DNA of 64,000 nucleotides from Alphaproteobacteria bacterium (GTDB lineage: Bacteria > Pseudomonadota > Alphaproteobacteria > JAJTHO01 > CANGYM01), in NCBI GenBank assembly GCA_044375675.1, contig JBILMD010000002.1, forward strand, positions 105,104 through 169,103, read 5' to 3'. The notes under the pieces are model-generated. The model saw only the letters and a list, made by a program, of their open reading frames with translations, was not told the DNA's origin and did not search any database. Positions 1,685 through 48,057 of this stretch are shown here, in pieces. Every line of letters starts with the position of its first letter. Positions within the stretch are counted from its first letter, which is position 1. The position numbers and the translations under genes are program-made.

Positions 1685-2078
1685 GAGGGGAACCGGTCAT
1701 CCCCCCGACCATGGATAGAAATATCAGAAAATGAATGTCGACAAAATTGAACTGGTCTTTCTATACCTTCACTGTAAAAAATGCGGATACGAAAGTCAAG
1801 GGGCTGTCAAGAAAAAAGTTTTGTTTAAAATCAATAAATTAAATTTTTTCGTTTGATTTCCGTCATCCCAGACCAGCGAGCGACAGCGAGCGCCGAGCTG
1901 GGATCCAGCGCAAATGCCAAAACGCGGAGCGTTTTGTTCCTTAGTTTTCACAATACAAAGGCAAAAGGCTGCGCCTTTTGACAGTGGCGCTGGATACCGG
2001 ATCAGCGGTCGCTGCGCTCCCTTGTCCGGTATGACGATGCATAGACATGAACAGCCTTGGCTGGGTTTGGGGCATCCT

Positions 2079-16989: not shown

Positions 16990-17125
16990 TAAAGTCCTAT
17001 AGTGTTTCCACTTTATTCCCGTACTGGCCTGCGAACGGCGCCTAGCGTCGCTCACCTAGATTCACTAGGCAGCGCTCCGCTAGGCTTGTTCTCGGCTTTA
17101 GTCACGAAAATAAATTGAAAACACT
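16990..17125. repeat. Mosaic dispersed repeat (modules C+B), with internal imperfect palindrome
   Basis: ctttattcccgtactggcc recurs at 20565. gcttgttctcggctttagtcacgaaaataaa recurs at 24248, and as its reverse complement at 20509. The central ggcgcctagcgtcgctc...gcagcgctccgctaggc forms a hairpin. Confidence 0.55.
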
Positions 17126-20484: not shown

Positions 20485-20605
20485 TGGTATTTTGCCTTTA
20501 TTTTTGTACTGAGCCGAGAACAAGCTCAGCGGAGCGATGCCTATGGTTTTTCCTCTTTATTTCCGTACTGGCCCGTTGTTTTCCAGAGCCAAGCGGGGGG
20601 GGAGG
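20485..20605. repeat. Two tandem copies of repeat module C plus an inverted copy of module B
   Basis: ctttatttttgtactgagccgagaacaagctcagcggagcgatgcc at 20496-20542 and ctttatttccgtactggccc at 20565-20584. gagccgagaacaagc is the reverse complement of gcttgttctcggc at 17084 and 24248. Confidence 0.55.
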
Positions 20606-23087: not shown

Positions 23088-24179
23088 TTAGTGCATATTC
23101 GCGCTGCGAACACAGCGAAATCCCAAGTGATTTGTGCCGGTGGAGGGTTCACCCTTGCCCCGTGTTCCCACCATATAACGCGAGCAATACTGGTTGGTGC
23201 ACAAAAAAGATCCGCCCCGATGAACCTTTTTTTCAACGCCCATCTCAACAGGATCAAAAGATTTTTCTGGCCCCTGTGGATTTTTGGCCACCCCACCTGC
23301 CGTGACAAGCGTTTGATAATAATCCGGCGTGTACCAATCGCTGACCCATTCCCAAACATTGCCCGCCACATCATACAGGCCATAGCCGTTAGGGGGGAAT
23401 TGCGCAACGGGGGCCAGTCCATGAAAGCCATCGGTTGCGGTGTCTTTGTTGGGAAAGCTCCCTTGATAGGTATTCGCCATGCCTTTTTTTGTGGGGGGGG
23501 CAAACTCATCGCCCCACGCATACAGCTTGCCCGTTAGGCCCCCACGGGCGGCAAATTCCCATTCGGCCTCGGTGGGCAGGCGTTTCCCCGCCCATTTCGC
23601 ATAGGCCAGCGCATCCTGATAGGCCACGTGCACAACGGGAACATTGTCTTTTCCAACGATGGAACTCTCGGGCCCCGTGGGGTGTTTCCAGTTGGCACCG
23701 TGAACATAACGCCACCACTGAAGATGATCGTTAAGGGGCACAGCGTTTTGGGGCGCATAAAAAACAACGGACCCTGCCACCAAATTTTCTGGGGGCGCCC
23801 CTGGGAAATCTTCAGCCTTGGGGGCTTTTTCCGCCAAGGTGATATAGCCTGTGGCCTTCACAAAGCGGGCAAAATCCGCATTGGTGACCTCGGTTGTATC
23901 CATCCAAAACCCATCGACATAAACGCGGTGAATGGGGCGGGAATCATGTGTGGTCTGCATCCCAACATCATTGTGATCGATGCCGTGGGGATGCGCCGCG
24001 CCCATGGAAAATTCGCCGCCCGGAATCCAGACCATACCCTTGGGGGCAGGACCCTCAGGCTTTGTTGTGTTGGGGATGGTGGGTAAAAATTCTGATGGTG
24101 CAGCCTTAGCAGGGGGATTTTCCGCCACAGCCAAACCGCTGTTCAAAACAAGGATCACGAAAGCAAAGAGGATTTTCAT
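23088..24179 (-). CDS. Formylglycine-generating enzyme (FGE/SUMF1-family), secreted
   Basis: Signal peptide plus FGE-sulfatase domain hallmarks (WEWVSDWY, HRGGSFLC, GFRCVR). Lies 74 bp upstream of the sulfatase on the same strand. Confidence 0.85.
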   Translation of the reverse strand: MKILFAFVILVLNSGLAVAENPPAKAAPSEFLPTIPNTTKPEGPAPKGMVWIPGGEFSMGAAHPHGIDHNDVGMQTTHDSRPIHRVYVDGFWMDTTEVTNADFARFVKATGYITLAEKAPKAEDFPGAPPENLVAGSVVFYAPQNAVPLNDHLQWWRYVHGANWKHPTGPESSIVGKDNVPVVHVAYQDALAYAKWAGKRLPTEAEWEFAARGGLTGKLYAWGDEFAPPTKKGMANTYQGSFPNKDTATDGFHGLAPVAQFPPNGYGLYDVAGNVWEWVSDWYTPDYYQTLVTAGGVAKNPQGPEKSFDPVEMGVEKKVHRGGSFLCTNQYCSRYMVGTRGKGEPSTGTNHLGFRCVRSANMH

Positions 24180-24247
24180 GGCATGGTTTTCCTTTTTTTT
24201 CAGAGTAAGCGTCCCAATATAAACAATTGGGCATCACTCTGCCAGTC

Positions 24248-24400
24248 GTGTTCTCGGCCTTAGTCACGAAAATAAAGCAGGACTTGCGCACACCCTTTGT
24301 CATTGCGAGCGCAGCGAAGCAATCCAGACATGCCGCTACGGGAAAGACTGGATTGCCACGCCTCCTGCGGAGGCTCGCAATGACGATGTGCGTAAGTCCT
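24248..24400. repeat. Repeat module B fused to structured repeat family A (copy 1)
   Basis: 24248-24280 matches 17084-17117. 24281-24400 is ~97% identical to 47458-47560 and contains nested inverted repeats (gacttgcgcac/gtgcgtaagtc, tcattgcgagc/gctcgcaatga, gcaatccag/ctggattgc, gcctcc/ggaggc). Confidence 0.65.
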
Positions 24401-24415
24401 ATAAAGTAAAAATAC

Positions 24416-24452
24416 TTTAAAAAGGATCCCCGCATTATGCGGGGATCTTTTG
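24416..24452 (-). terminator. Rho-independent terminator downstream of rplA (palindromic, so potentially bidirectional)
   Basis: GATCCCCGCATTATGCGGGGATC hairpin flanked by an A-run and a T-run. Confidence 0.55.
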
Positions 24453-24474: not shown

Positions 24475-25158
24475 TTAAACTTTCACCGTCAGGCCCACAC
24501 CCATGGTGGAAGAAAGGGTCATTTTTTTAATGTATGTGCCCTTCATGTCGGCAGGTTTGGCCCGTTGAATAACATCGTAGAGAGCCTGAAAATTTTCACG
24601 AAGTTTCACCAAATCAAAGCTGACTTTTCCGAACGGGGCATGGATAATCCCTGTTTTTTCCGTGCGGTATTCCACCTGACCGGCCTTGGCATCGGCAACA
24701 GCTTGGGTCACATTCATGGTCACCGTGCCCAGTTTGGGGTTGGGCATCAGGCCCTTGGTTCCCAGAATTTTTCCCAGACGTCCCACCAAAGCCATCATGT
24801 CCGGCGTGGCAATGCACACGTCAAAATCAATGGTGCCGCCCTGGATGATTTCAACCAAATCTTCTGCGCCAATGATATCGGCGCCGGCGGCTTTGGCCTC
24901 TTCGGCCTTGGCACCACGGGCAAACACGGCCACACGGGCTTGTTTTCCACCTTTTCCGTGGGGCAGGGTAAGCATCCCGCGGATGTTTTCATTGGCTTTG
25001 CGGGGATCCACGCCCAGCATCAAGGCCAATTCGATGGTTTCATCGAATTTGACTTTGCTGTTATCCTTCAGAATCTGCAAGGCTTCGTCCAAACCGTAAA
25101 CCTTGGCGGTGTCAACAGCCTGTAAAGTGGCGGCCACACGTTTTGCTAGTTTTGCCAT
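24475..25158 (-). CDS. rplA: 50S ribosomal protein L1
   Basis: 227 aa with strong L1 family similarity throughout. Confidence 0.95.
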   Translation of the reverse strand: MAKLAKRVAATLQAVDTAKVYGLDEALQILKDNSKVKFDETIELALMLGVDPRKANENIRGMLTLPHGKGGKQARVAVFARGAKAEEAKAAGADIIGAEDLVEIIQGGTIDFDVCIATPDMMALVGRLGKILGTKGLMPNPKLGTVTMNVTQAVADAKAGQVEYRTEKTGIIHAPFGKVSFDLVKLRENFQALYDVIQRAKPADMKGTYIKKMTLSSTMGVGLTVKV

Positions 25159-46861: not shown

Positions 46862-47371
46862 CTAAAACGGGATTTCGTCATCAAGCTCTTTTTCCAAATG
46901 GACCGCAGGGGCGGAGGACCGCGTTTCGGGGCTGTCATAATACAAAGCCCCGTCACCCGGGCCGGCCAGAGAGGATCCCCCCTCGTACCCACTGCCGCCG
47001 CGGGCGCCGCCGCCGTCGGATTTGGTATCCAGCAGGGTCAGCTCGCCTTTAAAGCGGGAAATGACAATTTCTGTTGTGTATTTTTCAACGTTGCTTTGGT
47101 CGGTCCATTTGCGGGTTTGCAGTTGGCCCTCGATAAAAATGCGGCTGCCTTTTTTGACATAGCGCTCGGCGATATCCGCCAGTTTGTCGTTAAAAATCAC
47201 CACGCGGTGCCATTCGGTGCGGTCTTTGCGCTCCCCCGATTGTTTGTCGCGCCATGTTTCGGATGTGGCCAAGGTAAGCGTCGCCAATTTGGTCCCATCC
47301 TGGGAGGTGCGAATTTCAGGGTCTTTGCCCACGTTGCCAATCAGCATGACTTTGTTTAAACTTCCGGCCAT
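46862..47371 (-). CDS. ssb: Single-stranded DNA-binding protein
   Basis: OB-fold N-terminus (NKVMLIGNVGKDPEIR), Gly-rich linker and acidic C-terminal tip DDEIPF. Confidence 0.95.
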   Translation of the reverse strand: MAGSLNKVMLIGNVGKDPEIRTSQDGTKLATLTLATSETWRDKQSGERKDRTEWHRVVIFNDKLADIAERYVKKGSRIFIEGQLQTRKWTDQSNVEKYTTEIVISRFKGELTLLDTKSDGGGARGGSGYEGGSSLAGPGDGALYYDSPETRSSAPAVHLEKELDDEIPF

Positions 47372-47457
47372 AAAAGAATCCCCATCACTGTGTTGTCATC
47401 AATCAAAAACCGAATCATAATCCCCGCAGGGGTTGGAGGCAATAAAAAATAGAGGGT

Positions 47458-47560
47458 GACTTGCGCACAACCTTTGTCATTGCGAGCGCAGCGAAGCAAT
47501 CCAGACATGCCGCCACGGGAAAGACTGGATTGCCACGCCTCCTGCGGAGGCTCGCAATGT
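47458..47560. repeat. Structured repeat family A (copy 2)
   Basis: ~97% identical to 24281-24400 over about 100 bp, with the same nested inverted repeats. Confidence 0.65.
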
Positions 47561-47579
47561 GCGTAAGTCTTAAAACCTT

Positions 47580-47846
47580 TTAAGCATCAGAGGCGAGAAT
47601 CTCTGACAGGATTTCAGGGGTTAGGCCGCGCTGGGCTGCTTTTTCGGCAAGGTCATGGCGCAAAGACAGGAAATTTTGGGATTTTAACGCCTGCCACTGG
47701 GCAAAATCTTGCATGGAAATGACGGCCACGCAATCGCGCTTGTGCCGCTTGATAATCACAGGCGCATGCTGGGCCCGATCCAAAAGAGCCCCAAAATGGT
47801 TTTGCGCGTCTCGAGAGGACATAATGTCAGTCATGATGAACATCAC
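47580..47846 (-). CDS. Phd/YefM-family type II antitoxin, orphan (no adjacent toxin ORF)
   Basis: NHFGALLDRAQHAPVIIKRHKRDCVAVISMQDF matches the Phd/YefM fold pattern. The start codon is ambiguous (GTG/ATG options). Confidence 0.65.
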   Translation of the reverse strand: MMFIMTDIMSSRDAQNHFGALLDRAQHAPVIIKRHKRDCVAVISMQDFAQWQALKSQNFLSLRHDLAEKAAQRGLTPEILSEILASDA

Positions 47847-48057
47847 AGTCTATGGGATGATTGGTTATAAGTGTAGCGATAATAGAGATTTTTGTCAAGA
47901 TTTTGATCCCAAAACATCACTTCCCCCCAAAAAAATTTTTTGGGTTTGGCGGGAAAATGTGATATTTGTTATAGTTGTGAAAAGTGAGATTTGTTATATT
48001 TTTTCTCTAAAATAACTTAAGAAGCCAAAGCATTCTAGAAAAGGTTTTTATACGTTT

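Follow-up and report, generated by a model that had tools for sequence, protein, structure and literature searches.

A probably mobile palindromic repeat of CGTC-tagged, REP-type units within a longer inverted repeat, at two intergenic sites of an alphaproteobacterial genome

Bacterial miniature inverted-repeat transposable elements (MITEs), e.g. Correia elements and ERIC, have terminal inverted repeats and target-site duplications, a TA duplication being typical of Correia and ERIC. GTAG-type doublets of repetitive extragenic palindromes (REPs), termed REPINs, are moved by a single-copy REP-associated tyrosine transposase (RAYT) (PMC3116915, PMC2817692). A REP superfamily with a CGTC tag, which comprises among others dRS3 of Neisseria and RPE-4 and RPE-6 of Rickettsia, was described by Di Nocera, De Gregorio and Rocco (2013, BMC Genomics 14:522, PMC3733652). 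Its units have an unpaired CGTC or TGTC tag (CCTC is tolerated), A-T-initiated stems of 8-9 bp, loops of 4-5 nt and a CCA tail. Head-to-head dimers with 20-100-nt spacers predominate and are often heterodimers, whereas dimers with the tags inside are rare and tandem dimers negligible. These repeats are prevalent in Alphaproteobacteria (Micavibrio and Bradyrhizobium among them), and outliers exist in other phyla; they are intergenic, enriched between convergent or co-directional genes and located near the 3' ends of open reading frames (ORFs) (PMC3733652). Here, a repeat is described that is present in two copies, A and B, in a 64-kb stretch of an alphaproteobacterial genome (contig JBILMD010000002.1; the whole stretch is called the window). 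In each copy, two CGTC/TGTC-tagged REP-type units are combined into an inverted head-to-head pair (tags outside), and a 14-bp outer inverted repeat surrounds them. The element is a small, non-coding and probably mobile palindromic repeat, and it is likely that a non-coding, non-autonomous, selfish REP/MITE-like repeat is the whole explanation of each copy. It is regarded as an ordinary genomic hitch-hiker and not as a dedicated regulator of its neighbours.

Copy A is located at 24279-24400 and copy B at 47458-47569. The preliminary description of this DNA had reported two near-identical copies in the same orientation. Both were found on the plus strand; aligned positions are about 98% identical, and the value over 114 ungapped nt is 95%. 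The end of copy B had been placed at 47560, which is about 10 nt short. Over the stretch from GACTTGCG to AAGTC, two substitutions separate the copies, and B additionally lacks 6 nt, CAATG[ACGATG]TGCG. The likeness ends at the element borders, and the flanks of the two copies are unrelated. A 26-mer of the core has two matches in the window, where 0.00 are expected by chance.

On the plus strand, copy A is preceded by a putative target-site duplication ATAAAG (24272-24277) and a single extra C (24278), both read from the sequence. The left arm of the outer inverted repeat, AGGACTTGCGCACA, spans 24279-24292. It is followed by the left REP-type unit (24298-24327, plus strand), TGTC / ATTGC / GA / GC-GCA-GC / GAA / GCAAT / CCAG, a short form with the d(GCGCAGC) mini-hairpin as its centre. 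A 20-nt spacer, ACATGCCGCTACGGGAAAGA, with a weak CCG/CGG mini-stem inside (24328-24347, no strand assigned), separates it from the right unit (24348-24385), which in minus-strand reading is CGTC / ATTGC / GA / G-CCTCC-GCA-GGAGG-C / GTG / GCAAT / CCAG. The right outer arm, TGTGCGTAAGTCCT (24387-24400, plus strand), is complementary to the left one at 13 of 14 positions, with one G-T pair on the plus strand. The second putative ATAAAG duplication, likewise read from the sequence, adjoins it at 24401-24406 (plus strand). In copy B, the left outer arm GACTTGCGCACA (47458-47469, plus strand) has its first 2-3 nt replaced, because this end abuts a rearrangement junction. The left unit (47475-47504, plus strand) is the same as that of copy A, the spacer (47505-47524, no strand) has one substitution, and the right unit (47525-47558, minus strand) has lost its CGTC tag by the 6-nt deletion ACGATG. 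Alleles of the copy B site from other metagenomes (L137, L142; L-numbers such as L005 or L121 denote fetched genome or metagenome stretches compared with the window) retain this tag. The right outer arm of copy B, GTGCGTAAGTC, is at 47559-47569 (plus strand). In this way, the TGTC tags are at 24298-24301 and 47475-47478, and the CGTC tag of copy A is at 24385-24382 of the minus strand. Both copies are head-to-head heterodimers.

Four nested inverted repeats had been listed in the preliminary description. All four are present, but the pair gcctcc/ggaggc is not nested in the third: it forms a hairpin to the side, flanked by the right arms of the third and second repeats, and the fold is therefore branched. 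As RNA, copy A folds with -71.9 kcal/mol (z -10.5) and copy B with -55.7 kcal/mol (z -5.4). The DNA fold of copy A has -44.3 kcal/mol (z -8.6), and its right unit alone -8.9 kcal/mol (z -2.2). The opposite strands fold with nearly equal stability.

The element is inserted DNA that is polymorphic among near-identical strains. Related strains were obtained by exact-protein look-ups and derive from freshwater-type metagenomes. Site A is filled in L127, L128, L129 and L131, whose rplA is 100% identical to that of the window, and empty in L130, L132, L133 and L134 (rplA 98.2-98.8% identical), where the rplA terminator runs into the region upstream of the FGE-sulfatase gene (FGE gene). Site B is empty in six contigs, L121-L126, with 99.4-99.8% identical ssb. 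Here, the conserved ssb upstream region stops exactly at the element border. Beyond this border, the window contains an antitoxin gene and the element. The corresponding position is taken by 25 nt of other sequence in L121, L122 and L126, and by a different small gene and palindromes of the CCCTCTCCC...GGGAGAGGG type in L123-L125. Around the antitoxin gene (window 47570-48057), a whole segment of about 460 bp, antitoxin gene plus element, is missing from L121, L122 and L126. Upstream of the ssb promoter, there is thus a hot spot for variable DNA.

The same composite was found at further loci (L156, L158, L159/L160 in decayed form, L162 and L163), so that it occupies five or six or more distinct intergenic loci of this alphaproteobacterial lineage. 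The outer inverted repeat is kept at all of them. Two of the three testable insertions have 6-bp target duplications, ATAAAG at copy A and AAAATA at L156. Both share one geometry, i.e. 6 bp, C, AGGACTT, with the element taken as C+AGGACTT...AAGTCCT. The other loci are too truncated or decayed for this comparison, L158 and L159 being uninformative. In L128, L129 and L131, the contigs with rplA end 102-134 nt past its stop codon, inside the element; assemblies are expected to break in this way at a repeat. The proposal of a cruciform-capable, mobilisable element of REP or MITE type is borne out by the CGTC-tagged dimer, the presence/absence among strains, the terminal inverted repeats and the 6-bp duplications at two of three sites.

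The anatomy of the unit was derived from 288 units in 888 kb of fetched family loci. Its plan is [C/T]GTC / ATTGC / GA / centre / G(A/T/C)(A/G) / GCAAT / CCA(G). GTC is preceded by C in 83% and by T in 15% of the units, and the tail CCA is present in about 80%. All four window units have the ATTGC...GCAAT stem followed by CCA(G). This stem comprises only 5 Watson-Crick pairs; then come an internal loop of GA versus GAA/GTG and an inner hairpin, whose stem has 2-7 or more bp and whose loop has 3 nt. Among 112 distinct centres, GC-GNA-GC (N is any of the four bases) is the commonest. A longer form is G-GA-GC-GNA-GC-GA-C. Other hairpin centres are unrelated: CCTCC-GCA-GGAGG in the right unit of the window copies, GGCGC-GAA-GCGCC, GAGTTGC..GCAACTC and CCTTGC-CCT-GCAAGG, the last from a Helicobacter prophage. 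Both window units have a GCA triloop with a C-G closing pair. GCGNAGC is the 'mini-hairpin DNA' of Hirao and co-workers, which according to passages of PMC13037366 is unusually stable against heat and nucleases; d(GCGCAGC) was simulated in PMC3201870.

Counted from outside in, levels 1, 2, 4 and 5 of the centres have Watson-Crick pairs in 92%, 50%, 78% and 86% of cases, each value exceeding all 1000 partner shuffles. Non-Watson-Crick cases at levels 2 and 3 are almost all tandem G-A/A-G. When pairs are peeled off the centres, chiefly GCA, GAA, GTA and GGA remain as loops. The outer 5-bp stem covaries across sub-families (ATTGC/GCAAT, ATTCT/AGAAT, ATCCT/AGGAT, ATGGC/GCCAT), while tag, GA bracket and tail are constant. 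Among the nine close copies, nearly every pair is invariant, so covariation is uninformative at that level. Pairs of units are arranged with the tags outside in 117 cases, with the tags inside in 10 and in tandem in 11. Only 15 of the 117 tags-outside pairs have identical centres; in the other 102 the centres differ. The commonest spacer in the family is 24 nt, and most spacers have 15-30 nt. A tandem array, unlike the usual inverted pairs, was seen in an Anaerolineae metagenome-assembled genome (JARYMK010000068.1; L105, 1824-2058), where at least 6 identical short-form units follow each other in the same orientation, 7-10 nt apart.

The family is large and widespread. In a scan of a species-representative genome collection, which yields a lower bound only, the 27-nt core GTCATTGCGAGCG[A/C]AGCGAAGCAATCC was matched exactly in at least 120 genome stretches. 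The repeat superfamily is present in at least 10 bacterial phyla. Among the matches listed, alphaproteobacterial hosts are many Bradyrhizobium and other Hyphomicrobiales, Sphingomonadales, Micavibrio, Rickettsiales and Magnetospirillaceae, and other Pseudomonadota are Legionellales, Coxiellaceae, Lysobacterales and Hydrogenophaga. Hosts from other phyla in the same list are Desulfobacterales, Thermoanaerobaculia, Chloroflexota (Anaerolineae and Dehalococcoidales), Calothrix, Bacteroidota, Chitinispirillales, Spirochaetaceae and one Clostridia metagenome-assembled genome. The G+C content of host loci ranges from 25% (Rickettsiales) to 67% (Acidobacteriota). Complete genomes, those of Calothrix NIES-267 and several Bradyrhizobium, are among the core carriers. 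On the 1.76-Mb megaplasmid NZ_CP017076.1 of Novosphingobium resinovorum, the core is located at 35 places, the best match being unannotated. Prophages of Helicobacter canis (a Campylobacterota host) also carry the family: the unit in L161 (1470-1590, corresponding to BK070053.1 14353-14473) is annotated there within a 'hypothetical protein'. Megaplasmid and prophages are possible vehicles for the spread between lineages. Literature searches with the peptide strings CFASLAMT and VIASEAKQS and the DNA strings GTCATTGCGAG and CGAAGCAATCC retrieved only unrelated papers and primer sequences.

Covariation and literature together suggest that the unit acts as a single-stranded DNA hairpin on the purine-rich strand, with a 5-bp stem starting A-T/T-A, a G-A bracket and a variable inner hairpin, most often GC-GNA-GC. 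The unpaired CGTC tag and the CCA tail could be what a trans-acting enzyme grips in order to copy or move the element. Owing to the inverted arrangement, either strand of the DNA has one unit that can fold. The composite as a whole, together with its outer repeats, appears to move in one piece in this lineage. Two modes of movement are conceivable: from the 6-bp duplications, a DDE-type enzyme that acts on the outer repeats would be expected, and from classic REPIN logic an HUH-type enzyme. If rplA, the FGE gene, the antitoxin gene or ssb are affected at all, this is most likely incidental.

Several observations weigh against a selfish, mobile REP-type repeat. To our knowledge, neither a cognate RAYT for CGTC repeats nor a parent insertion sequence (IS) of the element is known. 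A transposase for the family was not identified here, with no search made for a RAYT gene in the window or the source genome. A gene pair between inverted units 1.5 kb apart in L005 was considered as transposase and rejected, as its translations, judged by eye only, look like a LysE-type transporter and an unrelated ORF. Likewise, Di Nocera et al. did not find a transposase for the CGTC repeats (PMC3733652), and Y1 HUH genes are few in Alphaproteobacteria (PMC6006769). A 6-bp duplication differs from the products of single-strand transposition of the HUH/RAYT type. The lineage with the empty site A has a diverged intergenic region and thus shows no clean footprint of excision or insertion. Copy B is without a duplication, its left end being a rearrangement junction at the edge of a larger variable segment. 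Target-site duplications, which had been proposed as something to look for, were thus found at copy A (ATAAAG) and not at copy B. As DNA, the short unit has only -2.7 kcal/mol (z +0.2) with nearest-neighbour energies and is indistinguishable from shuffles; the parameters omit the special stability of GNA loops and sheared G-A pairs, so that the case for a mini-hairpin comes from the literature and from covariation. Some cross-phylum matches are metagenome-assembled genomes, for which contamination is possible. Finally, copy number is based on the 64-kb window and scattered metagenome contigs.

The strongest rival is that the copies are MITEs in the strict sense, whose 14-bp outer repeats are the termini of a miniature transposon cut and pasted by the DDE transposase of a parent IS with 6-bp duplications, the inner REP dimer being a passenger or the remnant of an old target. 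This is a possible, though clearly less probable, alternative. It accounts for the outer repeat and its junctions with the core, which are the same in all copies of the lineage, and for the perfect 6-bp repeats with the same one-base offset at two independent insertions, for which a chance of about 1e-3 per site was estimated (A/T-rich flanks). REP dimers regularly occur within longer palindromes in other bacteria, namely in Halothiobacillus neapolitanus and Anabaena variabilis (PMC3733652). A comparable but unrelated composite, in which another outer repeat surrounds a TGTCATTGCGAG core, is multi-copy in one metagenome (within L139-L157). This metagenome, Ga0180009 (L139-L141, L144, L148-L150, L154, L157), contains the composite with its TGTCATTGCGAG...CTCGCGATGACA core and its own outer inverted repeat (AGTTTCGC...) at at least 9 sites with low-GC flanks, and many contigs end inside it. 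On the other hand, no IS with CAGGACTTGCGCAC-type ends was present among the fetched loci, no genome or metagenome scan having been aimed at one. Duplications were found at two sites only, and the outer repeat occurs nowhere else in the window.

It is unlikely that the element is a cis-acting RNA, i.e. that its long hairpin stabilizes a 3' end, is an RNase target or terminates transcription of the upstream gene, or forms a structure in the 5' untranslated region (UTR) of the FGE gene or ssb. Copy A is located between rplA (24475-25158, minus strand) and the FGE gene (23088-24179, minus strand), and copy B between a Phd/YefM antitoxin gene (47580-47846, minus strand) and ssb (46862-47371, minus strand). 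Both copies are intergenic between co-directional genes; copy B begins 9 nt and copy A 75 nt past the stop codon of the upstream gene. In favour of an RNA role are this closeness of copy B and the median distance of 19 nt, by crude ORF calls, between a family element and the nearest upstream stop codon. REPs are known to stabilize mRNA 3' ends, and it is argued by Di Nocera et al. that many are transcribed (PMC3733652). The fold is very stable on either strand, and a T-rich run, GCTTTATTTTCG, directly follows copy A on the minus strand.

However, the arrangement of signals argues otherwise. A canonical intrinsic terminator of rplA (24447-24425) precedes copy A. It was the only one called there in a scan for intrinsic terminators, with none at the element; at copy B, a T run does not begin until 9 nt past the stem. 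Between element and gene are the only promoter-like sites directed at the FGE gene (24245-24216) and ssb (47442-47414), so that the element would be outside their 5' UTRs; no sigma-70-like site was detected inside either copy. These promoter-like hexamers are part of sequence that is also present in element-free strains, where the flanking control regions are unchanged. In the minus-strand transcript, which is the sense strand of all four neighbours, the G-T wobble of the outer stem becomes a C-A mismatch. Moreover, C-G-closed GNA triloops are, according to passages of PMC13037366, a DNA rather than an RNA motif. Rfam yielded no match at copy A or B at the gathering score. With a laxer E-value threshold, applied to copy A only, matches were confined to the neighbouring terminator region and far below threshold. 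The close copies provide no covariation. A compact functional RNA, as initially predicted, is hence shown neither by an Rfam match nor by informative covariation.

The preliminary description had also given distances of the copies to the start codons downstream, which are confirmed as about 100 nt for the FGE gene (24179) and about 87 nt for ssb (47371). It took them as a sign of promoter or regulatory hitch-hiking or of a preference for sites close to 5' UTRs. This interpretation is not supported: the promoter-like sites are outside the element, and since copy A lies just past the rplA terminator and copy B 9 nt past the antitoxin stop codon, both are as 3'-proximal as 5'-proximal. At L159, the same element orientation corresponds to the sense strand of the upstream gene, so there is no consistent orientation. 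Across the family, longest-ORF calls place 24 elements between convergent, 53 between co-directional and 17 between divergent genes, compared with 156, 358 and 149 background regions, which reveals no significant bias. The chi-square values are estimates only, about 1.1 with region counts as the reference and about 5.5 with intergenic length. The calls are noisy: 38 of 148 elements fall 'inside' long ORFs, which in high-GC genomes are probably spurious. The element is unlikely to act as a cis-regulatory RNA, given where the terminator and the promoters are located, flanks that are the same in strains lacking the element, and its inconsistent orientation.

It is still less probable that the unit is a domesticated DNA site which is bound by a host protein (a nucleoid protein, gyrase, primase or another single-strand initiation factor) and selected for a chromosome function. 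The identity of the 27-mer core across phyla, in hosts with 25% to 67% G+C, could be taken to favour such a site. Mini-hairpins are known from single-strand priming sites of phage G4 and of plasmid RSF1010 (ssiA), as stated in passages of PMC13037366, and Escherichia coli REPs bind gyrase and IHF (PMC3733652). But copy number is patchy and strain-variable, the element is missing at both window sites in near-identical strains, and a protein that binds the unit was not identified here. In addition, a single chromosomal function of general kind is ruled out, as Di Nocera et al. argue, by the 50-fold range of family sizes (PMC3733652). Simple segmental duplication or chance resemblance of local sequence, suggested by the finding of only two copies in 64 kb, is refuted by a likeness that stops exactly at the borders, by copies at other loci in related genomes, by hundreds of family members and by zero expected chance matches.

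One consequence of the element is documented: it is a landing site for an IS of the IS110 family. In three contexts (L158, 1-1601; L162, 2200-3520; L163, 1-1200), this IS was found between CGCAAT and GAC, i.e. at the stem/tag boundary of a unit. Its transposase has 326 residues with the domains DEDD_Tnp_IS110 and Transposase_20. The IS in L162 adjoins the FGE gene, which is the locus of copy A. The flank in L163 is homologous to window sequence near 2040-2300, and one IS context adjoins smpB. The 5' non-coding region of the IS contains CTCGCAAT and AGCAATCC, each with an 8-nt match to the unit. These matches are suggestive of bridge-RNA targeting as in IS621 and ISPpu9. IS621 inserts into Escherichia coli REPs guided by a bridge RNA (PMC11208160), and ISPpu9 inserts into Pseudomonas putida REPs (PMC12288879). 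Some flank combinations look chimeric, which could be due to recombination between IS copies or to assembly errors. A tblastn search with the transposase against all fetched loci revealed no further copies.

A second, different head-to-head dimer of the CGTC type is located at 1861-2036 of the window, about 43 nt past the smpB stop codon. Its units (1861-1907, plus strand; 1991-2036, minus strand) are about 80 nt apart. The left one is CGTC ATCCCAG ...GCGACAGC... CTGGGAT CCAGC, and the other reads, on the minus strand, CGTC ATACCGGA ...GAGCGCAGCGAC... TCCGGTAT CCAGC. They have 7-8 bp stems and large loops that hold the same mini-hairpin motifs, and similar units occur in other fetched loci.

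Four ORFs run through the element: 24227-24409 (plus) and 24106-24435 (minus) at copy A, and 47461-47583 (plus) and 47415-47516 (minus) at copy B. They translate as ...FVIASAAKQSR..., ...CLDCFAALAMTK... or ...DCFAALAMT.... The two ORFs tested against Pfam gave no match, and the only proteins resembling one of the ORFs are two metagenome 'hypothetical proteins'. These ORFs are artefacts of the repeat. Two further observations concern the surroundings. Behind the Phd/YefM antitoxin gene (47580-47846, minus strand), there is no toxin gene. A motif of about 47 nt, GGCA.C.CTC.GC.AG..TGTTCTCGGC.TTAGTCACGAAAATAAA, recurs beside sulfatase/FGE-related genes (17066-17114, 20512-20543 in inverted orientation and 24230-24276; also 16996-17029 and 20540-20573). 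It is also present upstream of the FGE gene in element-free strains and is probably a shared promoter/operator region of sulfatase genes, separate from the repeat.

The selfish REP/MITE-like repeat thus explains spurious ORFs and metagenome contig breaks downstream of rplA, and it marks two strain-variable spots beside essential genes. As a landing site for an IS110-family IS, it can drive rearrangements. The CGTC-tagged repeats have no known transposase. With a 27-mer that does not vary, an outer stem that covaries and an exchangeable inner hairpin based on d(GCGNAGC), this sub-family offers a sharply defined substrate for biochemical or comparative enzyme searches. A more far-reaching interpretation, for now a doubtful one, would be that the GA-bracketed GNA-mini-hairpin unit is the recognition signal of a widespread enzyme that mobilises or processes single-stranded DNA, and that the composite consists of such units captured and moved by a second, unrelated transposition system. 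If this were true, the family would be the largest 'orphan' repeat family in bacteria.

Of the systems described so far, the CGTC superfamily of Di Nocera et al. is shared in its tag, the A-T/T-A start of the stem, the CCA tail and the head-to-head heterodimers. Further common traits are the intergenic location, a main distribution in Alphaproteobacteria with members in several other phyla, the lack of a flanking transposase and the nesting of some dimers in longer palindromes. In contrast to its stems of 8-9 bp and loops of 4-5 nt, the units found here have a 5-bp stem, a G-A bracket and an inner hairpin with a GNA triloop. Additionally, the window copies carry the 14-bp outer inverted repeat and, at copy A, the putative 6-bp target duplication. 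Canonical 8/4 and 9/5 units, ATTCCCGC-GAAA-GCGGGAAT and ATGGCCGGG-CTTGA-CCCGGCCAT, were found in the same loci as the family. Because these units share the loci and all of the compared traits except stem and loop sizes agree, the family is treated, on sequence grounds, as a structural variant inside the CGTC REP superfamily. ATTGCGAG and related strings are absent from the text and supplements of PMC3733652 (Figure 2 not covered).

With the REPIN-RAYT system, the element shares inverted REPs, a short spacer, the potential to form one long hairpin and a non-autonomous, long-lived nature, with processing presumed to take place as single-stranded DNA. The tag is GTAG there and CGTC/TGTC here, which rules out a GTAG/RAYT REPIN. 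The arms of REPINs are usually near-identical, whereas the dimers here are mostly heterodimers, and target duplications, present here at two sites, are no REPIN feature. The likeness to MITEs comprises a length of about 120 bp, the lack of coding capacity, terminal inverted repeats, an A/T-rich target duplication at two of three testable sites, the intergenic location and variability between strains. Unlike in Correia elements and ERIC, the interior is a REP dimer and not a deleted transposase region, and the duplication is 6 bp and not TA. The IS110-family IS shares with IS621 and ISPpu9 the insertion at one fixed position of a REP unit, here CGCAAT/GAC; host lineage and REP family differ. 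Mini-hairpin DNA, d(GCGNAGC)/d(GCGNNAGC), is a structural motif and not a genetic element, and passages of PMC13037366 contain no mention of it as the core of a genome-wide repeat family; yet the commonest unit centre of the family described here is exactly GCGNAGC.

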